From: an uncultured Peptococcaceae bacterium
GTDB taxonomy: Bacteria; Bacillota; Dehalobacteriia; UBA4068
Length of the DNA stretch: 58,491 nucleotides
Assembly: GCA_964368605.1 (NCBI GenBank)
Contig: CAYJBP010000002.1
Coordinates: 1 to 58,491, forward strand
Reading direction: 5' to 3'
A program made the position numbers and the translations under genes. How positions within the stretch are numbered: the first letter of the stretch is position 1; every line of letters starts with the position of its first letter. The notes below the pieces were generated by a model. It had not been told where the DNA came from, did no database searches, and was given only the letters and a program-made list of their open reading frames with translations. Positions 1 through 22,455 of this stretch are shown here, one piece after another.

Positions 1-3000
1 CCAATGGCGGCGGCAATGACCCCGATACCAATGGCGGCGGCAATAACCCCGATACCAATGGCGGTGGCAGTGATGATGATGAGATGCCGGATGTACCAAG
101 CAATAGCCCCGCCCCCAGCCCCAGAAATAGTACCGTTACTATGACTTTGGATTTTGAAGATGATAGTAGGGATTTGGAGCTTGAGGTTGTAATTGGTGAT
201 GTCTATACTATTGATCGGATTGCTAATAATACTGTTAGCGATTTAGATAATTTAGCCAATAAAATTTTGCCCCAAAGCGATGGCCCTGCCGGCGCTTGGC
301 ATTTATTTGGTAAATGGACAGATAACTGGGAAAATTTCTATTCTCCGGAAGCTCCTGATAACAGAGGTACTCTTACTGTTCCCAGCCGCGACTTCACCCT
401 AGAAATTGTTGAAACTCTATTGCCTTTGCCTCAATTAAGCTCTGTTAATTTCAGCTATGAGCAGGTTCTTGCCGGCGAAGGTACATCAACCAGCCCTTAT
501 CTTTTATTAGTGGGCGGAACTTATCAAATTTTCCCCAGATCTACCCAGCCTTTACCCGATAGCCGCATTATTGGTAGCGAAATGTGGCGCGAATTCAGCG
601 GCACAGACTTATATAGCTTTGTTGGTAATCCCAGCACCGGTTATTTTGATGGCGGCACTAATCCCTATTTAACCAGCCAAGGCTATGTGGACGAAAATGG
701 CAATCATTCCGTTTTTGTTAAAGCCGAAAAAACAGGCACAACAGGCAGTATTGCCCTTTCTACCTTCGATCCTAAATATAGTAATGATGGTCGTTGGGAT
801 AGAAGTATTTATCTTCATATCATAAATCCGATCACCGATTTGAAATTTAATGATAGCCTTAATCAAGTTCAATATGATAAAACCATATCTTTAGAAGATT
901 ATCTTACCTTTAGCCCCCAAGATACCAGCGAAACCGCTATTAAATGGGAAGTAGTAAGCAGCACCGATGCCAATGTATCTATTGATGCCAATGGCAATTT
1001 ATATACCGGCGCTAGCGCCGGCATGATCACTGTTAAGGCTACCGCAACCGGCTATGGCCAAGATGCTGACGGCAGTATTAAGGCAGGCATTATCAGTGCC
1101 GAAATTACTATTGATGCTACCCGTGATCCCGATATTTACAATATTACTTTTGACCCGATGGGCGGCAGCTTTATTGATGCCAGCCAGGCAACTGCCCAAA
1201 CCAATAATCAAGGCTATATAACTAGCTTGCCCCAACTTGCAGATCGCAATGCTATGTTGTTTAGCGGCTGGTATCTCGATCCCGGCTATAATGTTCGTTT
1301 TAGCACCGATACCTTGATTACCAATGACTCAACCATCTATGCCGGTTGGGTACAAGGCAATTATGCCACCGTTGAATTCGAGGCCAATCCTCCTGCCGGC
1401 GGTTCGGCAACAGCAGCTCCGCAATTTAAAACTATTGCCAATGGCACTGCTTTTGGTACTTTACCAATCGATATCCCTACCGCCAAAGATAGTAATGGTA
1501 AGGCTTTAGTTTTTGCCGGTTGGTATCCTAATGCCGATGGCAGTGGCGAAGCTTTACAATCGTCTACAATTATTAATACAAATATCACCTATTATGCCAA
1601 ATGGGAAGCATCACGCTCTATTAATGGCGATATCGGCTGGTCGGTAATCGAAGAGGTTCTTGATTTAGGCTCGCCCGATCCTGCCCAAAACCCAACCACC
1701 CCCAATAGCGGTGTTACTCAAAATTGGACAGAAGAGGGTGCTGCCGATGAAGATGCCGGCGATCGTGATTTGCGCTACTTTGAAGTAGAAATTAGCGGCG
1801 AACCTTTAGCCGTTGGCTCGGATATTATTATTGTATTAGATAAATCTACATCGATGCATAATGGTTCTCGCTGGGAGGATGCCGTAGCAGCCGTAGATAC
1901 CTTGGCCGAACAACTTTTTGATGTTGATGAGAATGGTCAAGATAATCCCGATAATTATAATCGGGTGGCTTTAGTTCAGTTTTCCGGCAATACCCGCAGC
2001 AGCTTTAATTTCCAAAACAGTTGGGCCGGCTTTAATAATAATTTTGATCGCGAGCAACCCAATTATAGCGCTCAAGGCTCTACCCCCCCTGCCGCAGATG
2101 ATAATCGTGCCGCAGGCGATGGTACCAATTATACTACCGCTTTACGCCAAGTAATCGAAATTATCGGCTCGCGTTCGGCTGCCGACAGTGCTCGCCCGGT
2201 ACATGTAATCTTTGTTTCTGACGGCAATCCCGAAACTTCGCGCAGCGCCCATGATCAAATCGTACAAGATGCTGCTGGTAATTCCTATGGCCCGGTAGTA
2301 GATAGCAGTGATACCGCCATAGAGTTTTCCCGTACCGACCAAAATGTTGTCGAAGCCCTTGGCTTAACCGGCGAAAAAGAGGCAGCTACTTTAATCGCAA
2401 TGGGCATTAATAGCTATGCGGTTGGTATCGAGCTTGCTCCCAGCAAATATTTAACAGCCATTGCCAATGGCCAGCAAGATAATGTGTTTACCAATGTAGA
2501 TAGCCAAGAACTTACCAATGTATTAACCCAAATCGGCGATTCGGTTATCGCCTATAGTCAACAAGCCCATATCACTTATAATATAGCAACAGCCTTCCCC
2601 AATCATGCTATTATCGATGACGCAGGCAGCGATGCCGAAAAACCGGCCTGGGAAAATGGTATTGGCCTTAATGATCGCCCAGCCAATAATGATTTTGCCA
2701 ACTCCTCGGCCAGCTATCAAATCAATGGCAGCACTATTACCTTTGATGTTAACTCTATACCCGAAGTGGGCTTAACCTTAGGCTTTTATGCGGAATATAC
2801 CCCGGAAGATCCCCCGGTTCCGCCTACACCACCTACTCCGCCCAATCCGCCCGTAAAGCCGCCCACACCGCCTACCATTCCCGATGAGCCTCCGACAGTA
2901 ATCGAAGAGCCGCCAACACCCTTAGCCGGTGGCGTGAATATCGAGGAAGCAGATACCCCCTTGGGCGAAACCCCAACCATTATCATCACCGAAGAAACTC

Positions 3001-3113
3001 CGCTAGGCCAATTGCCGCAAACAGGGGCAATCGGTATTAGCGCCGGCAATCTATTATTGGCTGCCCTAAGCGCCTTAGCCATCTTTGGTTTAAGCTTTAA
3101 AAAACGTAAATAA
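1..3113 (+). CDS. LPXTG-anchored surface adhesin with vWA domain. 5'-partial: the frame is open from base 3, so the true start lies upstream of the window
   Basis: The frame of ORF 84..3113 stays open back to base 3 and encodes 9-aa tandem repeats NGGGN(D/N)PDT. No signal peptide follows the Met at 84. Ig-like Big_2-type segment 'AIKWEVVSSTDANVSIDANGNLY'. Two Listeria-Bacteroides-type repeats ('FDPMGG...SGWY', 'FAGWY...YYAKW'). vWA MIDAS 'DKSTS' plus 'GTNYT' and 'SDGNP'. Pro-rich stalk. C-terminal 'LPQTG' + hydrophobic segment + 'KKRK'. Confidence 0.85.
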   Translation, partial: NGGGNDPDTNGGGNNPDTNGGGSDDDEMPDVPSNSPAPSPRNSTVTMTLDFEDDSRDLELEVVIGDVYTIDRIANNTVSDLDNLANKILPQSDGPAGAWHLFGKWTDNWENFYSPEAPDNRGTLTVPSRDFTLEIVETLLPLPQLSSVNFSYEQVLAGEGTSTSPYLLLVGGTYQIFPRSTQPLPDSRIIGSEMWREFSGTDLYSFVGNPSTGYFDGGTNPYLTSQGYVDENGNHSVFVKAEKTGTTGSIALSTFDPKYSNDGRWDRSIYLHIINPITDLKFNDSLNQVQYDKTISLEDYLTFSPQDTSETAIKWEVVSSTDANVSIDANGNLYTGASAGMITVKATATGYGQDADGSIKAGIISAEITIDATRDPDIYNITFDPMGGSFIDASQATAQTNNQGYITSLPQLADRNAMLFSGWYLDPGYNVRFSTDTLITNDSTIYAGWVQGNYATVEFEANPPAGGSATAAPQFKTIANGTAFGTLPIDIPTAKDSNGKALVFAGWYPNADGSGEALQSSTIINTNITYYAKWEASRSINGDIGWSVIEEVLDLGSPDPAQNPTTPNSGVTQNWTEEGAADEDAGDRDLRYFEVEISGEPLAVGSDIIIVLDKSTSMHNGSRWEDAVAAVDTLAEQLFDVDENGQDNPDNYNRVALVQFSGNTRSSFNFQNSWAGFNNNFDREQPNYSAQGSTPPAADDNRAAGDGTNYTTALRQVIEIIGSRSAADSARPVHVIFVSDGNPETSRSAHDQIVQDAAGNSYGPVVDSSDTAIEFSRTDQNVVEALGLTGEKEAATLIAMGINSYAVGIELAPSKYLTAIANGQQDNVFTNVDSQELTNVLTQIGDSVIAYSQQAHITYNIATAFPNHAIIDDAGSDAEKPAWENGIGLNDRPANNDFANSSASYQINGSTITFDVNSIPEVGLTLGFYAEYTPEDPPVPPTPPTPPNPPVKPPTPPTIPDEPPTVIEEPPTPLAGGVNIEEADTPLGETPTIIITEETPLGQLPQTGAIGISAGNLLLAALSALAIFGLSFKKRK

Positions 3114-16065: not shown

Positions 16066-16500
16066 CTAGTCGATTTCTAAGCGCTTATTAATATGGCGCA
16101 CAAACTCTAAAGCGCTTTTAAAGGATTGACGCTGTTTATTATCTTGCCAAACAATAGTTCCTTGCCAGGAAGTATTTTGCCTGGTAATAATACTTAATTC
16201 CAGGGTAGCTAAGGCTCCTAATTGTTCTTCTACAAAATCTTTGCTCATCAAATCGCCTTCAATTTCGGCTGCCGGTGGGCGAGAGGGCAATTCCTGCTGA
16301 GCAAAGCTGCGTCGCCTTTGAAAAGCACGTGGAAAATTTTGTTTATCCAAAAGCGCATCAATCATCAGAATGAAATTAAGTAAGTCGTCAAAAATAAGCG
16401 TATTTTCTAAACGCTGGCCAAAAACACGTCCACCGATTTGGCCATTATTATTTTTATCAATACAAATACGCAAAACCGCATTAACATGATTTAATTTCAT
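16066..16500 (-). CDS. Hypothetical protein (144 aa), co-transcribed after pilT
   Basis: RBS GAGAGG. 19-nt gap from the pilT stop and 12-nt gap to the next gene. No recognisable motif. Confidence 0.5.
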   Translation of the reverse strand: MKLNHVNAVLRICIDKNNNGQIGGRVFGQRLENTLIFDDLLNFILMIDALLDKQNFPRAFQRRRSFAQQELPSRPPAAEIEGDLMSKDFVEEQLGALATLELSIITRQNTSWQGTIVWQDNKQRQSFKSALEFVRHINKRLEID

Positions 16501-16519: not shown

Positions 16520-17587
16520 TTAAGTGATAGAAGCTAGTCTTTTTTGCATTTGTTCGCTATTTGTGCTATGATGAACCGCCATATTAGGGGCGATAATGCC
16601 ATTTTTAACCATATTAAATAGATAAGTATCCATAGTAACCATGCCTTCGGCTGCCGAAGAATAGATAACGCTATCAATTTGATGAGCCTTTGATTCACGG
16701 ATCAGATTGCGAATAGCACTATTGGCCACCATAATCTCAAAAGCCGGCACAATGCCACCTGTTGGCTTAGGTATTAATTGCTGCGAAACCACCCCTTGCA
16801 CAACCATGGCCAACTGCACCCTGATTTGCTGCTGCTGCTGGGGCGGAAAACTATCTACAATGCGGTCGATGGTATTGGCTGCCCCAATGGTATGCAAGGT
16901 TGATATTACCAAGTGGCCGGTTTCGGCGGCGGTAATGGCGGCCTTAATTGTTTCATAATCGCGCATTTCGCCCAAAAGAATTACATCGGGCGCTTGGCGC
17001 AGCGCTGCCCTTAAGGCTTTTTCATAGCTCATGGTATCACTTGATAATTCTCTTTGCGTAACCGCACTTTTAATATGACGATGTAAATACTCGATTGGAT
17101 CTTCGATAGTGATAATATGGGCGCTGCGATTATTATTAATTTCGTTAATAAGGCAAGCTAGGGTTGTTGATTTACCGCAACCTGCCGGCCCGGTTACTAA
17201 AACCAAACCTTTATTAAAATTAGCAAAATTGATAACCGCATCGGGAATATGCAATTGCTCACGATTGGGTAATTCGAAGGATACTATTCTGATTACCGAG
17301 GCCAAAGAACCACGCTGACGCATTGTATTTACCCTAAAGCGGGAAAGGCCGGGCAAAGAAAAAGAAAAGTCATCATCGCCTTCGATTAGCAAACGCTCCA
17401 TCGAGCGATTATCGGCTAAAACATAAATCTCCTCCACTAAGGCTTGAATTGTTTCCGGCAAAAGGCGCTCGCCATCTTCTTTTAAAATCTGATTATTGGC
17501 TTTATAAGCAATCGGCAAGCCGGCAATTAGCAAAATATCTGCTGCATTATGGGCTACCGCCTGCTTAAGAATTTCCATCATGTTCAT
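16520..17587 (-). CDS. pilT: PilT-type type IV pilus ATPase (retraction-ATPase family)
   Basis: Walker A 'GPAGCGKST', 'IITIEDPIEY', 'ILLGEMRD', 'AAETGHLVISTLHT', 'AIRNLIRE'. The ATG at 17587 overlaps the upstream stop (ATGA). Confidence 0.9.
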   Translation of the reverse strand: MNMMEILKQAVAHNAADILLIAGLPIAYKANNQILKEDGERLLPETIQALVEEIYVLADNRSMERLLIEGDDDFSFSLPGLSRFRVNTMRQRGSLASVIRIVSFELPNREQLHIPDAVINFANFNKGLVLVTGPAGCGKSTTLACLINEINNNRSAHIITIEDPIEYLHRHIKSAVTQRELSSDTMSYEKALRAALRQAPDVILLGEMRDYETIKAAITAAETGHLVISTLHTIGAANTIDRIVDSFPPQQQQQIRVQLAMVVQGVVSQQLIPKPTGGIVPAFEIMVANSAIRNLIRESKAHQIDSVIYSSAAEGMVTMDTYLFNMVKNGIIAPNMAVHHSTNSEQMQKRLASIT

Positions 17588-18087
17588 AGAACGGGAATCT
17601 CCTCTCCAAGTTCTTCGGTCCATACCGGTAGCGAGTCAAAAATAATTACCTCGCCTACTTCGCTTACCATTTGCCACTGAAAAATTTGCCATCTGTTTTC
17701 CTGGTCGGGTGGTAAAAGTACCATATCTAATTGCAAATGTTGCGTATCGTTTAAAGGCAAGTCGGCATAAATAGCCAAGCCTTGCTCATAATCGCTAATA
17801 TAAATATTTTCGCCATAAGCCTCCTGCAAGGCGGCTTCTAGAGCTAAGGCATCGGGCTTTAAGCCTTCTTCCCAGCTAGCGGTTGCCGTGGCCATAATTT
17901 GATTAGCCATGCCATCAAGCTGATAGTATTCGGTAGCAGCCTGAGCTGTTTTTTGGCTAAGGCGTAAATCGGCCTGTGCCGAGGATAATGCCAAAACGGC
18001 AAAAATGGTTAAGCCTAATACCAGTAAAACGGTTAATAAGGTTACACTGCCGATGCCAAATAAAGGCGAAGCTTTTTTATCGCTCAT
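17584..18087 (-). CDS. N-terminally anchored pseudopilin/PilX-like protein (167 aa)
   Basis: Single N-terminal hydrophobic helix 'GSVTLLTVLLVLGLTIFAVLAL'. TAATG overlap with the upstream gene. RBS GGAGGTG. Confidence 0.55.
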   Translation of the reverse strand: MSDKKASPLFGIGSVTLLTVLLVLGLTIFAVLALSSAQADLRLSQKTAQAATEYYQLDGMANQIMATATASWEEGLKPDALALEAALQEAYGENIYISDYEQGLAIYADLPLNDTQHLQLDMVLLPPDQENRWQIFQWQMVSEVGEVIIFDSLPVWTEELGEEIPVL

Positions 18088-18488
18088 TATAACACCTCCG
18101 GCTTATAAATATTGGTATCTAGGGTGTAAATAATATTTTCGCCCTCTATAACTTCGATTGATAAATCATATAAATAAGGGGAATTTTGCTCAAGCGTATA
18201 GATTAAATCGAAAGTATCCGGCGAGCCCGATTTTTGCCAATCCTTATCATAATATATATGCATGGGCTCATTGGTAAACTGAATAGTTGTGGATTGGCCA
18301 AAGTTGGTTAAACTTTCGGCCACTTCTTGGGCGGCAAAAACGGCTTGATTTAGGTTTTTGCTATCCTGAATATCCTGGTAAGCAATAGCAAATAGGCTAA
18401 TACAAACCGTAGAACAAAGCACAAAAATGGTTAAGGCCAATACCACTTCGGTTAAAAAGATGGTAGAGCGAGAATTAGTACGCTTCAT
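18087..18488 (-). CDS. Pseudopilin-like protein with a degenerate class III leader (133 aa)
   Basis: 'RSTIFLTEVVLALTIFVL' resembles G/FTLxE but lacks the Gly. TAATG coupling on both sides. Confidence 0.55.
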   Translation of the reverse strand: MKRTNSRSTIFLTEVVLALTIFVLCSTVCISLFAIAYQDIQDSKNLNQAVFAAQEVAESLTNFGQSTTIQFTNEPMHIYYDKDWQKSGSPDTFDLIYTLEQNSPYLYDLSIEVIEGENIIYTLDTNIYKPEVL

Positions 18489-18985
18489 TATATTCCCCCC
18501 TCGGCCATAATTTGACTGTGAATGGTATAAAATGCCTGCTCGATATGGCCATCCGCAAATTGAAAATCGATGGTAAGCAGGCCATCTTCCAGATAAAAAG
18601 CAAGGGATTGCATATCCATAAGAGGAGTGCCAAAACTAGGCTCTACCTCGTATCCTTGCTCTACAAACTGCTCATAAAGTTTGCCTTCATGGCAGTATAA
18701 ATAGGTGATATATTGATAGCCATCATAATTTTGTTTTAAAAGTAAAGCCTCGGTATCAAAAAGCTGGCCAACTTCCAGCGAATCGGCCAAATCGGCGCGG
18801 CGTATTTGATTGCTAAAATAGGCCAAAGCCACGCGGCTTTGATCATTTTGATTGGAGGTTTCGACAATATTATGATAAATAGAGCCACCAAAAACGACTA
18901 GGCCGATTGATAAAAAAAGGAAAATCGCACCCAGCATAAATACGGCTATACTATCTATTTTGAAGCGATGTTTATCTTTAAACAT
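18488..18985 (-). CDS. N-terminally anchored small protein of the pilus-like operon (165 aa)
   Basis: One TM 'IAVFMLGAIFLFLSIGLVVFGG' followed by a beta-rich domain. Translationally coupled. Confidence 0.5.
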   Translation of the reverse strand: MFKDKHRFKIDSIAVFMLGAIFLFLSIGLVVFGGSIYHNIVETSNQNDQSRVALAYFSNQIRRADLADSLEVGQLFDTEALLLKQNYDGYQYITYLYCHEGKLYEQFVEQGYEVEPSFGTPLMDMQSLAFYLEDGLLTIDFQFADGHIEQAFYTIHSQIMAEGGI

Positions 18986-19000
18986 AGCGGCTCCTTTCCA

Positions 19001-19321
19001 TTATTGTAGGGGGAAAACATCAATAGATGGCATTAAATTTTCGCCAATATACTGATAATGGACAACAAACCGATCGGTATCCGGCCTAATGCCATAATTA
19101 TCGATTAAGTATTGTAGGTTTTGGGCATAAGCCCCTTCTAAAGCATAGCATTGCACGGCTGCCCTTTGCACTGAAGAAAGGGTAATATTAAGTGCTTCTT
19201 CATAGGCGGCCTCCTGCGAGGAGCTTGTGGCTGCAATAAAAGCCACAAAAAGGGCAGCACTTAAAATTAGATAAGTTAAGGGCTTAAGCAGGCTTTTAAC
19301 TTTATTTTCTTTTAAGAACAT
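19001..19321 (-). CDS. N-terminally anchored small protein of the pilus-like operon (106 aa)
   Basis: One TM 'LTYLILSAALFVAFIAA'. First gene after the platform protein. No G/FTLxE motif. Confidence 0.5.
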   Translation of the reverse strand: MFLKENKVKSLLKPLTYLILSAALFVAFIAATSSSQEAAYEEALNITLSSVQRAAVQCYALEGAYAQNLQYLIDNYGIRPDTDRFVVHYQYIGENLMPSIDVFPLQ

Positions 19322-19370: not shown

Positions 19371-20426
19371 TTAACCACCGATAGAGTTCATCATTGCCAA
19401 TAAAGGTAGCATTACCGAGAGCAAAAGCATGCCCACTACTACCACCAAAAATACCACCAACATCGGCTCGATTCTGGCCATAATCTTGGCTAAAATATCT
19501 TCGGTTTGATTATGGCAACGGCGTGCCAATTCGGCCATCACATTTTCTGATGAACCGGAGCGGAAACCGGTGGCGATTAAGCCAACCTCCAGGCCGCTAA
19601 AAATGCCGGTTTTTTCAACTGCGGTGGCAAAGCTGGCCCCTTCTTCCATCAGGCCGGCGCATTTGTCGATGGCGGCCTTCATCTTAGTATCTGCAACTAA
19701 GCTTTGGGCTTTTTCCAGGGCTTGATTAATATTTAAGCCGCTGGCCAAGGATAAAGACATAGCCGAAGCAAAATGCTCACGGGCTACCGAAATGCCTAAT
19801 TTACCACGGAAAAATATTTTATCGGCCATGGCACGCAAGCGCTCTTGCCCTGTTACCGAGCGAGAATTGATAAATAAATAGGCAGCTAACAGTAATAATA
19901 AAACGGCAAATACAATAGCGCCTTGCTGAGTAAATACGCCTAAATCGAGCAAAGAAGCTGCCCAGGGGCTTAAATCCGAACCCAATTGCTGCAATACCTG
20001 CTGGAACACCGGCAAAACCTGGGTAACCAACACAAAGGTAACCACGGCAATAATTACAGCCAACCAAGAAGGATAAACAATAACCTGACGCATGCTTTGA
20101 CGCAATTCATGCTCTTGTTCATAATGGCTGGCTAAAGCGGCAAGCACCTGCTCTAGGCGGCCGGTATCCTCGCCGATTTGAACCATGCGCAAAGAATGCT
20201 CGGGAAAGCAGCCGGCTTTTTCTAAGGCCGCATTAAAAGGAGCGCCAATTTCTAATTCGTCGCCGATTTTTTCTAAAAGCAGTTTTTCTCTTTGCGATGC
20301 GGCATCGGCTGCCAAAAGCGAAATGCCGTCTACCGGCAAAATCCCTGCTTTAAGCATCATCGAAATCTGCACAAAAAACATCGATAATTCTTCAGCGGTT
20401 AATAAGTTATTTTGCTTATTCGTCAT
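19371..20426 (-). CDS. Type II secretion / type IV pilus platform protein (GspF/PilC family)
   Basis: Two T2SSF-type repeats ('MLKAGILPVDGISLL...', 'SLASGLNINQALEK...') and three TM segments. Confidence 0.85.
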   Translation of the reverse strand: MTNKQNNLLTAEELSMFFVQISMMLKAGILPVDGISLLAADAASQREKLLLEKIGDELEIGAPFNAALEKAGCFPEHSLRMVQIGEDTGRLEQVLAALASHYEQEHELRQSMRQVIVYPSWLAVIIAVVTFVLVTQVLPVFQQVLQQLGSDLSPWAASLLDLGVFTQQGAIVFAVLLLLLAAYLFINSRSVTGQERLRAMADKIFFRGKLGISVAREHFASAMSLSLASGLNINQALEKAQSLVADTKMKAAIDKCAGLMEEGASFATAVEKTGIFSGLEVGLIATGFRSGSSENVMAELARRCHNQTEDILAKIMARIEPMLVVFLVVVVGMLLLSVMLPLLAMMNSIGG

Positions 20427-20452: not shown

Positions 20453-21208
20453 TTATTCTACGGCAGCTATATATTCAAAATCTTCGGCATAGGGAAAAAT
20501 TTGATCCAGCTTGCCATGAGCCACAATTCTTTGATTGGCAATTCCAATCGGATGACAAGAGGTAATGGTTACCGCCGAATAGCCTTGACTATAAATCGGC
20601 CCCCAATCATCCTGTTCTACAATATATGTTTCTTGGTATAAATAGCGATAAATATTATTGGCATCTGCTAAGTAAATATAATCGCCATCGACTAGGGTAT
20701 CGATATAATAAAAGGGTGCATTATCGGTAATTATCCCTCCTATGCTGGTATTACGATGCCCGGCAATGCTAACATTGCGATTAATGCCTTCGCCCGGCAA
20801 TTGCGAATAATCATATAAACCTGCTCCATCGCGCAAATCATCTTCGGTAACCCCGGCTTTAAGTGGCAAAACCTTGCCCAGCTTAGGGATGACCAATACT
20901 ACCTGCCCTTCCTGATAAGTTTGCCGATCGGCGGTGATAAACAGCTTATCGGTGGGCCAGTTTAGGGTGGGATCTGTTACTTCTTCTATTTCAGGTTGAG
21001 CGATAACGGGTTCTTCTGGCGCATCTTCTAAAACTACCACTTCTTCGGCAGGCGGCGGGATGATGATAGCCGGCATGGCGCCGCCAAAATCATCGGCTTG
21101 CGAGCGAGAATTTTCGTAGAAGATAATCCCACTATAAATGGCCGTGGCCAAAAGCAAGCATATACCATAAGTAGCAAGACCATTGCGTAAATATTTTTTA
21201 TTAGCCAT
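20453..21208 (-). CDS. Sortase (transpeptidase) with N-terminal membrane anchor
   Basis: 'SIAGHRNT' (His), 'VTITSCHP' (Cys), downstream 'NQRIVAHG' (Arg). 2-nt gap from the regulator gene stop. Confidence 0.85.
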   Translation of the reverse strand: MANKKYLRNGLATYGICLLLATAIYSGIIFYENSRSQADDFGGAMPAIIIPPPAEEVVVLEDAPEEPVIAQPEIEEVTDPTLNWPTDKLFITADRQTYQEGQVVLVIPKLGKVLPLKAGVTEDDLRDGAGLYDYSQLPGEGINRNVSIAGHRNTSIGGIITDNAPFYYIDTLVDGDYIYLADANNIYRYLYQETYIVEQDDWGPIYSQGYSAVTITSCHPIGIANQRIVAHGKLDQIFPYAEDFEYIAAVE

Positions 21209-21210
21209 AA

Positions 21211-22455
21211 TTAATCCTCTAAAAATGTTTGTTCCAATTCCAATTGTTGCAATTTATAAGCAATTTTAAGGAAATTTTTGCGATGACGTTGATAAAATGT
21301 ATTAACAATGCGATCTAAAACCAAAATACCATCTTCATAGTTGGCAGTAGGCAGCATCATTACAAATTGGGCGCCACTATAGCGAGAAATGATATCGCCA
21401 CGCCTTAAATTATCCCTTAAAACATAAAGTAATTGTTCCATTGTGGTGTTAAGCAGGCCTAAAGCTGGCGTGCAGCCATTAGGCAAGGAAATGGTAATTA
21501 GAGCCACATGCACGCAAGAGCCTTGCCTGGCCGCACGGCGTGCCTCTAGGCGATAGGCTTCTCTAAAAAAGCCGTATTCGCAAACAAAAGCACCGGGGCG
21601 CGAGGCTGTTTCTCGCAAATCATTTTGAATGATGCCCAAATCTGTTTCCAGATTTTTTTGCTCTTTCATAATTTCCTGATACAAAGACCGTAATTCCTCA
21701 GAGGGCTTAACCCCTAAATTGCGGTAGAGCAAATCGGTGGCTGTTTCGTAGTGGTTTAGGGCAGCCATGGAATTACCCAGCTTTAATAAAGCCTTAATTT
21801 GAAGAGCATGTAATTCCTCGTCATAGGGCTCTACCTGGATTGCAGCTAGGCTGATATCGGCTACAATATCATATTGCTCATCTTCTTCGAGTAAAGAGGC
21901 ATAGGTCATCACCCCCTTGATATACAAAGAATGATAATAAGAAGCCAAGGGAATAACCCATAATTGGTCGGCCAATTTCATTAAAAAGTCGTGCTGATAT
22001 AGGGCGATGGCCTCGGCATATAATTCTTTGCGTTTTTCGCGCTTTAAATCGGGCTCGGCTGCTTTTTGGATAAGCAAGGCAAAATCCTCGGCATCCACAT
22101 GGCAATCGATAGAGCGATTCCAAGAATAAGAGCCACGCTGCGAAAGAATTAGCTGCGGTTCATCACCAATTAAGGGCAATAAAACTGCCCTGGTTCGATA
22201 AAGTAAGGTTTTTAAAGCACTGGCCGGGTTTTGGCTATCCTCATCAGGCCACAAAACATCGATTAACTCTTTTTGGGGTATATTGCGGTCACGATTAACA
22301 ATTAAGTAGGCCAGCAAATTCCACATTTTTTGCGAGCGGCTAATATCATCACCCAAAACCACATTGCCAATATAAATTTTAAAATCACCGAGCATTTCAA
22401 CCCTAATCCCGGAATTGATATCAAAAAAAGTAGCGGGCGGTGAGTTTTTTGCCAT
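21211..22455 (-). CDS. SARP/BTAD-family transcriptional regulator fused to a degenerate GGDEF domain
   Basis: OmpR-like winged helix ('KMWNLLAYLIVNRDRNIPQKELIDVLWPDE'). BTAD/TPR-like region ('EELHALQIKALLKLGNSMAALNHYETATDLLYRNLGVKPSEELRSLYQEI'). In the C-terminal GGDEF fold the signature is 'SGAQF' ('RRGDIISRYSGAQFVMMLPT'). Confidence 0.75.
   Translation of the reverse strand: MAKNSPPATFFDINSGIRVEMLGDFKIYIGNVVLGDDISRSQKMWNLLAYLIVNRDRNIPQKELIDVLWPDEDSQNPASALKTLLYRTRAVLLPLIGDEPQLILSQRGSYSWNRSIDCHVDAEDFALLIQKAAEPDLKREKRKELYAEAIALYQHDFLMKLADQLWVIPLASYYHSLYIKGVMTYASLLEEDEQYDIVADISLAAIQVEPYDEELHALQIKALLKLGNSMAALNHYETATDLLYRNLGVKPSEELRSLYQEIMKEQKNLETDLGIIQNDLRETASRPGAFVCEYGFFREAYRLEARRAARQGSCVHVALITISLPNGCTPALGLLNTTMEQLLYVLRDNLRRGDIISRYSGAQFVMMLPTANYEDGILVLDRIVNTFYQRHRKNFLKIAYKLQQLELEQTFLED

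Follow-up and report, generated by a model that had tools for sequence, protein, structure and literature searches.

A widespread cassette of Gram-positive anaerobes with four small anchored proteins, a GspF/PilC-like platform and a PilT-family ATPase as a probable minimal type IV filament-like machine

What are four small membrane-anchored proteins doing when their genes lie between a filament-type platform gene and a pilus-type ATPase gene, and none of them carries a complete prepilin signal? The question is raised by a stretch of 58,491 nucleotides, here called the window, that spans positions 1 to 58,491 of contig CAYJBP010000002.1 (assembly GCA_964368605.1) from an uncultured Peptococcaceae bacterium of the dehalobacterial lineage UBA4068, whose genome comprises 2.39 Mb in 174 contigs. 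Four consecutive minus-strand open reading frames (ORFs), named here p106, p165, p133 and p167 after their lengths in residues, follow a GspF/PilC-like gene and precede a PilT-family ATPase gene, as confirmed in both the ORF listing and the minus-strand sequence. A first-pass annotation had described them as translationally coupled proteins of pseudopilin architecture without a prepilin motif. We find that the four genes form, together with those for the platform and the ATPase, a fixed and widespread cassette of which they are the core, and we consider it probable, from genes and predicted structures, that their products are the filament-type subunits of a minimal machine that is type IV filament-like and self-contained. 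The cassette consists of the following genes:

19371 to 20426, minus strand: GspF/PilC-like inner-membrane platform protein with two T2SSF domains (PF00482, E=1.5e-37)
19001 to 19321, minus strand: p106, 106 residues, bitopic, with a Lys-rich leader, a transmembrane stretch at about residues 15-35 and a conserved ectodomain; candidate stalk subunit or assembly factor
18488 to 18985, minus strand: p165, 165 residues, a DUF4860 protein; putative degenerate minor pilin, ComGF/GspJ-like
18087 to 18488, minus strand: p133, 133 residues, a putative ComGE/GspI-like pilin-type protein with a Glu at the +5-equivalent position
17584 to 18087, minus strand: p167, 167 residues, a putative cap-type pilin-like protein (PilX/GspK/ComGG-like) with an invariant Gly13 and no Glu
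16520 to 17587, minus strand: PilT-family hexameric ATPase, the only motor of the cassette (TIGR01420, 413.5 bits, E=6.8e-124, cut-off 319)

The architecture first proposed for the four small proteins, a single N-terminal hydrophobic helix and then a soluble domain, is borne out: each opens with a Lys/Arg-rich leader of 8-14 residues, continues with a hydrophobic stretch of 21-29 residues and ends in a soluble domain. The three overlapped junctions that had been reported are also present. TAATG stop/start overlaps join p165 to p133 at 18488 and p133 to p167 at 18087, and the p167 stop codon overlaps the ATPase start in an ATGA at 17587-17584, provided that the ATPase begins at Met13 of its listed 367-residue ORF. 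The alignment to the pilT_fam model begins at residue 15 of that ORF. The p106/p165 junction has no overlap, and p165 is preceded there by a 15-nt spacer with its own Shine-Dalgarno sequence, GGAAAGGAG. Promoter and terminator scans returned nothing above background.

The genes of this cassette travel together. DUF4860 was found in 14 of 61 relatives, and the order GspF-p106-p165-p133-p167-ATPase recurred in all 12 of the loci that were fetched. A scan for the p106 motif over one genome per species identified at least 350 genomes that encode a p106 relative, and the best 80 loci among them provide the orthologue counts given below. The same six genes stand in the same order in 78 of these 80 loci, the remaining two being cut by contig ends, so that the four small genes are genetically linked to a type IV filament platform and a T2SSE-family ATPase. 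None of the 80 lacks p106, whose gene comes directly after that for GspF. Translational coupling is conserved for p165-p133-p167-ATPase, with 4-nt overlaps kept at p165/p133 in 35 of 79 loci and at p133/p167 in 41 of 79. The 80 loci come from Oscillospiraceae, Christensenellaceae, Lachnospiraceae, Family XIII and Saccharofermentanales, and include isolates of Youxingia, Neobittarella, Diplocloster, Intestinimonas, Mordavella, Christensenella hongkongensis, Negativibacillus and Pseudoflavonifractor; many carriers are Clostridia of the gut, the rumen, the termite gut or digesters, and some are cultured.

The motor and the platform are distinct from those of the canonical pilus in the same genome. 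The cassette ATPase fails the ComGA model (139 bits vs a cut-off of 300) as well as the GspE and PilB models, and shares 51% identity with the canonical PilT of the genome. Among 76 cassette ATPases, 75 are closer to the one in the window (median 60% identity) than to canonical PilT (49%). The platform protein reaches none of the equivalog cut-offs, and its identity to the canonical PilC of this genome is 24%.

For three of the four small proteins, a pilin ancestry can be read from family matches and conserved residues. p165 belongs to Pfam family DUF4860 (PF16152; 81.1 bits, E=5.9e-23, above the gathering threshold of 25 bits), whose profile finds 3625 representatives at 50% identity. It also aligns with ComGF (NF041002, E=0.005, residues 23-155 of the protein against positions 14-138 of the 139 in the model), at 17 bits vs a cut-off of 80, and ComGF matches occur in 3 of 13 p165 members, again below the cut-off (best E=1.9e-4). 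p165 has no conserved Gly, and an Asp or Glu directly precedes the transmembrane stretch in 58 of 80 orthologues and in 120 of the 150 best representatives. Read against ‘G-F-T-L-I-E’, the consensus around the helix start, ‘K-R-H-I-V-D-I-L-F’, suggests that this acidic residue may be a relic of Glu5.

p133 has the clearest pilin-type N-terminus. It gives sub-threshold matches to ComGE (E=1.4e-5, 25 bits vs a cut-off of 49), GspI (E=0.13) and ComGF, and members of its family match ComGE, GspI, XpsI and PilA at the same sub-threshold level, with one member matching TIGR02532 at E=9.7e-6. The family profile matches the N-termini of solved pilins in the PDB, among them geopilin and Myxococcus xanthus PilA, at E=1.1e-4. 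A Glu at the +5-equivalent position is present in 80 of 80 orthologues, together with Leu+3 (78/80), Phe+2 (68/80) and a conserved S-[KR]-[ST] leader end. The -1 position is free: Arg (22), Gly (12) and Asn (8) are followed by Ser, Ala, Val, Thr, Lys and His, and the window has Thr (‘RST/IFLTE’, where the slash marks the boundary between -1 and +1).

p167 and p106 had no family match when the proteins of the window were scanned against Pfam and NCBIfam, and the relatives of p167 are all annotated as ‘hypothetical’. Across its orthologues PilX_N is the top Pfam family (11 of 80 members, best E=0.0014, sub-threshold), and ComGG_2 matches 4 of 13 members below its cut-off. Gly13, immediately before the helix, is invariant in 80 of 80 orthologues, no Glu follows it, and a conserved ‘LSSA.AD..LS.K.A...YY.AD’ comes after the Gly and helix start, a pattern shared with the cap pilins PilX, GspK and ComGG. 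An AlphaFold model of p167, built on an alignment of 80-81 sequences (predicted local distance difference test, pLDDT, 88.6), has two helices (residues 12-71 and 80-91) and four antiparallel strands, followed by a tail that is disordered. This order of secondary structure fits the lollipop arrangement of pilins, in which an N-terminal helix of about 50 residues packs with its C-terminal half against an antiparallel beta-sheet; the p106 model fits it loosely. The C-terminal tail of p167 (window 17584-17660) is of low confidence and probably disordered; an ‘LPVW’-type motif near its end (with variants LPVF, LPVY and LNLW) recurs in many orthologues, whether or not the locus carries a sortase gene.

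The sub-threshold matches of p165, p133 and p167 agree with one another, and their order is the one that a minor-pilin set would be expected to show. The prepilin motif needs a finer description than the one first given. It is correct that no protein has a complete Gly(-1)/Glu(+5), but the motif is eroded and not wholly absent: the Glu is present in p133, an Asp or Glu precedes the transmembrane stretch in p165, neither p167 nor p106 has one, and the Gly survives as an invariant residue in p167 only. The p133 segment ‘RSTIFLTEVV’ had been singled out as having the Glu without the Gly, which is right, and that Glu proves to be invariant across the family; the invariant Gly13 of p167 (‘LFGIG/SVTLL’) had been missed.

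The most divergent relative, the one-contig genome G013 (locus L031, 7522-11690), carries a variant cassette in which the ATPase gene lies upstream of the platform gene. Its p165 orthologue has a canonical prepilin signal, ‘NKKG/HSLVEMLL’, and still matches PF16152; its p133 orthologue reads ‘NEKG/FSLVEIII’ and its p167 orthologue ‘ENG/AASVLVIL’. No extra pilin gene was found in the flanks of this cassette, which looks like an ancestral-type form. No other evidence speaks as strongly as these canonical signals for the descent of p165, p133 and p167 from true prepilins. p106 is non-canonical even there, which is the main argument that it may never have been a prepilin. A pseudopilin ancestry has support for p165, p133 and p167, and p106 is without demonstrable pilin homology.

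The same observations bear on the suggestion that the N-termini are ordinary Sec signal peptides or anchors, and that the four are unrelated secreted or anchored proteins that happen to be encoded between pilus-type genes. Column statistics show small residues after the hydrophobic stretch of p106, p165 and p167, possible signal peptidase I sites, and these three proteins are also the ones without a significant fold or PDB match. Yet the hydrophobic stretches, at 21-29 residues, continue uninterrupted into the ectodomain helix in the p106 and p167 models, p133 holds an invariant charged Glu within its helix and matches pilin N-termini, some orthologues bear canonical prepilin signals, and the synteny with platform and ATPase is fixed. 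We therefore regard a set of ordinary Sec anchors as very improbable.

If the subunits descend from prepilins, are they still processed as prepilins? The organism has the means. Its contig C18 (L005, 4060-16466) carries a complete canonical clostridial type IVa pilus (T4aP) cluster that encodes PilB, PilT, PilC, PilA (‘KG/FTLVE’), PilD, PilMN and PilO, along with minor pilins that carry ‘G/FTLIE’ or ‘G/LTLVE’. The absence of the motif from the four small proteins is therefore real, since the organism uses the standard motif elsewhere. The C18 cluster also contains a fused PilM-PilN, a 722-residue PilX-like protein and a 428-residue minor pilin.

Other carriers of the cassette lack the peptidase. 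A search with PF01478 (Peptidase_A24), which would miss a very divergent peptidase, gave no match in 3 of 12 cassette-bearing relatives, including G038 (98% complete) and G044 (92% complete), nor in 11 of 50 further cassette genomes, including the isolates Christensenella hongkongensis HKU16 and Negativibacillus massiliensis, for a total of 14 peptidase-less genomes, two of them cultured isolates. In all 13 that were checked further (G018 was left out), the cassette's ATPase is the sole T2SSE-family ATPase, and no PilB/GspE or peptidase was detected, which leaves the cassette as their one type IV filament-like system. Because the A24 match is missing and the only T2SSE-family ATPase lies in the cassette, the machine is autonomous and, in those genomes, cannot depend on prepilin peptidase. 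This lends support to the first-pass suggestion that the proteins are not processed by a canonical peptidase. The p133 -1 residue follows the same division, with Gly or Ala in 0 of 11 peptidase-less genomes vs 11 of 38 peptidase-positive ones; the p133 Glu and the p167 Gly persist in the 11.

These data can be set against the proposal that the four proteins are ordinary prepilin-peptidase substrates, cleaved by the organism's single PilD (encoded on C18), which would tolerate odd -1 residues, and that they act as minor pilins that feed the canonical pilus or prime it. The genome does have PilD and a full T4aP cluster, the invariant Gly of p167 is at the right place, the G013 orthologues are canonical prepilins, and 39 of the 50 further cassette genomes have an A24 peptidase. 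Against the proposal, the -1 residue of p133 is Thr in this organism and most commonly Arg across the family, p106 and p165 have no candidate cleavage site, the platform and the ATPase lineage are the cassette's own, and the cassette is the only type IV filament-like system in the 13 genomes that lack an A24 peptidase or PilB. We consider ordinary processing and service to the canonical pilus unlikely.

p106 is the least certain member of the set. Its profile finds at least 1388 clusters at 90% identity, all named ‘hypothetical’ and without Pfam domains, and its ectodomain motif V-Q-C-Y-A-x-E-G-x-Y-P includes the invariant residues V56, C58, Y59, A60, E62 and G63. No conserved Gly or Glu of the prepilin-signal type is present. 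Pfam and NCBIfam scans of 81 members gave no pilin-family match, ComGC included, and the sole secretion-related match was T2SSM, sub-threshold, in 3 of the 81. A by-eye idea that ‘CYAxEGxYP..L..L’ might be the post-helix motif of ComGC and GspG found no support in the same scans. The AlphaFold model (from an alignment of 80-81 sequences; pLDDT 88.4) is lollipop-shaped, with a helix at residues 7-62, another at 69-76 and two strands. p106 may be either a stalk subunit or an assembly factor.

The second of these roles leads to a different machine, one in which p106 would be a small bitopic protein that serves in assembly or alignment, much as PilN, PilO or GspM do, and only a three-protein stub of p165, p133 and p167 would be built. 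We regard this as possible though doubtful. The lack of pilin-family matches, the T2SSM hits and the highly conserved ectodomain with its six invariant residues are what such a protein might be expected to show, and p106 also differs from the other three in being non-canonical in G013 and in not being translationally coupled to them. However, its gene follows directly on the platform gene, as comGC and gspG do, and its length of 106 residues is that of a ComGC. Its predicted N-terminal helix is a continuous 56 residues topped by a small alpha/beta head, its top Foldseek match is a (non-significant) pilin, and the head is too small for the ferredoxin-like domain of PilO or GspM.

We favor the interpretation that the cassette encodes a complete, if minimal, machine whose subunits are the four small proteins. 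p165, p133 and p167 would be descendants of minor pilins (ComGF/GspJ-like, ComGE/GspI-like and a PilX/GspK/ComGG-like cap, respectively), and the trio would correspond to the initiation or tip complex that GspI-J-K, PilV-W-X or ComGE-F-G form in other systems. Overlapping stop and start codons fit a 1:1:1 production of such a complex. p106, translated separately from its own ribosome-binding site, would serve as a repeating stalk subunit or as a small membrane adaptor. The GspF-like platform would load the subunits and the dedicated PilT-family ATPase would drive the process. The class III signal is eroded in most lineages, this one among them, and what is left of it is the Glu of p133, the putative Asp/Glu relic of p165 and the Gly of p167. 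The subunits of this organism would then probably remain uncut by prepilin peptidase and retain their short basic leaders. The core of a classical filament cannot accommodate uncleaved leaders that bear several Lys or Arg residues, and so we infer a short, membrane-tethered pseudopilus or piston in preference to a long pilus.

Several observations weigh against this interpretation. All pilin-family hidden Markov model matches of the cassette proteins lie below curated cut-offs. Comparison of the family profiles by hhalign, both with the PilW-like, PilX-like and PilA proteins of the canonical cluster and among the four families, gave probabilities of at most 36%, and profile searches of the PDB with p165, p167 and p106 returned noise only. 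The fold searches that the first-pass annotation had proposed gave no significant pilin match: p167 finds cystatins, which are helix-on-sheet folds, as its best Foldseek matches in the PDB (E>=0.14), and the top match of p106, the full-length Thermus pilin PilA4 (6xxd_A), is not significant (E=0.65, TMq 0.47). With both fold and PDB profile searches non-significant, the structural case is one of topology. Nothing in its sequence ties p106 to any pilin, it departs from the canonical form even where its G013 neighbors keep it, and its ectodomain is unusually conserved for a major pilin. The window genome does encode PilD, so p167 could be cleaved after Gly13 here. Most of the peptidase-less genomes are metagenome-assembled, many of them of unknown completeness. 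Finally, the filament, the transcripts and the proteins of the cassette are known by prediction from DNA alone.

The genes around the cassette add a possible enzymatic partner and a possible regulatory layer. In the window these are:

21211 to 22455, minus strand: SARP/BTAD regulator (BTAD, E=2.3e-18) with a degenerate GGDEF-like C-terminus (E=6e-4, below cut-off); found in 48 of 80 loci
20453 to 21208, minus strand: sortase (PF04203, E=1.6e-19); a sortase is found in 28 of 80 loci
16066 to 16500, minus strand: p144, a cytoplasmic protein of 144 residues with no family match; homologues in 28 of 80 loci, after the ATPase gene or beside the regulator gene

Clustering of neighboring ORFs revealed a lipoprotein of about 320 residues with a Transglut_core domain (PF01841, E about 1e-24) encoded directly upstream of the platform gene in 66 of 80 loci, to which tblastn added 10 (about 76 of 80). 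In the window and in a relative of the same genus (L032), this gene is missing from that slot and a sortase gene is found there instead. The near-obligatory presence of a transglutaminase-fold enzyme beside the cassette, with the sortase in its slot here, suggests a putative role in extracytoplasmic processing, cross-linking or wall remodeling. An orthologue of the transglutaminase-like protein (308 residues, 55% identical to that of L033) is encoded elsewhere in the window genome, on the 2.6-kb contig C162 (1113-2039), beside an ArsR-like gene and unlinked from the cassette; it has a Sec-type signal and not a lipobox.

We examined whether the sortase might act on the four small proteins, and none has an LPXTG motif with an anchor. 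The genome encodes six very large surface proteins (1009-2193 residues) with LPQTG/LPQTD sorting signals, one in the window (84-3113, plus strand) and the others on C10, C53, C71, C89 and C98, which are ordinary candidate sortase substrates, and a second sortase on C17 whose catalytic domain is 61% identical to that of the operon's sortase. The p144 and SARP regulator genes are adjacent in several loci, which suggests that the two form a regulatory pair.

A bolder extension of the minimal-machine interpretation, which we offer as speculation with rather low odds of being right, is that the cassette represents a distinct branch of type IV filaments that no longer relies on a prepilin peptidase for maturation. 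Uncleaved subunits would be driven by a PilT-lineage ATPase acting alone, and an extracytoplasmic Cys-His enzyme, transglutaminase-like in most carriers or a sortase in this genus, would process, cross-link or wall-anchor them. The nearly invariant Gln-Cys pair of p106 (VQCYAxEG) would be a candidate reactive site.

To our knowledge, maturation by an A24 prepilin peptidase and assembly by a PilB/GspE-type ATPase are treated as universal in type IV filaments. The cassette appears to do without both and is yet strictly conserved. If functional, it would offer a natural test of whether a PilT-type motor alone can power assembly, and of the roles of Glu5 and Gly(-1), which persist after loss of the peptidase. 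Our literature search found no paper that mentions DUF4860 and no description of the cassette, and the four small proteins currently carry the labels ‘hypothetical’ or DUF4860. The ‘generic’ model in the survey of the type IV filament superfamily by Denise et al. 2019 (PMC6668835) requires a recognizable major pilin, and it would miss the cassette, which supplies none. Annotation pipelines and filament-finding models with the same requirement will miss it likewise.

Three known systems lie closest to the cassette. Retraction ATPases of the T4aP are the relatives of its motor, which passes the PilT/PilU family model; unlike PilT and PilU, this motor has no second ATPase beside it in its machine and belongs to an orthologous lineage of its own (about 60% identity within, 49-51% to canonical PilT). 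Being the sole ATPase, it must do all the work the machine needs and not retraction only. Like GspH-I-J-K of the type II secretion system (T2SS) or FimU-PilVWX of the T4aP, the cassette has a small co-translated pilin-like set, with p133 as a small GspI-like protein with Glu5, p165 as a J/W-like protein and p167 as a cap without Glu5, as in GspK and PilX. It differs from both in lacking a major pseudopilin with a class III signal, a secretin, GspL/M, PilMNOP and a GspE/PilB extension ATPase, and in that its signal is eroded and the system is peptidase-independent.

The ComG competence pseudopilus of monoderm Bacillota consists of the ATPase ComGA, the platform ComGB, the major pilin ComGC, the minor pilins ComGD-GG and the peptidase ComC. 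The cassette resembles it in its monoderm host, its compact single operon, its platform with one ATPase of about 350 residues and its small pilin-type subunits, and the best (sub-threshold) matches of p133, p165 and p167 are ComGE, ComGF and ComGG. In contrast to ComG, the ATPase is of the PilT family and is encoded last, not first; there are four subunits and not five, with no recognizable ComGC-type major pilin; and a canonical class III signal and a requirement for ComC/PilD are lacking, while a transglutaminase-like lipoprotein is associated. ATPase family, equivalog cut-offs and peptidase dependence all place the cassette outside ComG itself. By analogy, it would be most like ComG or a T2SS-type pseudopilus in its working, and it is apparently an undescribed variant within the type IV filament superfamily.

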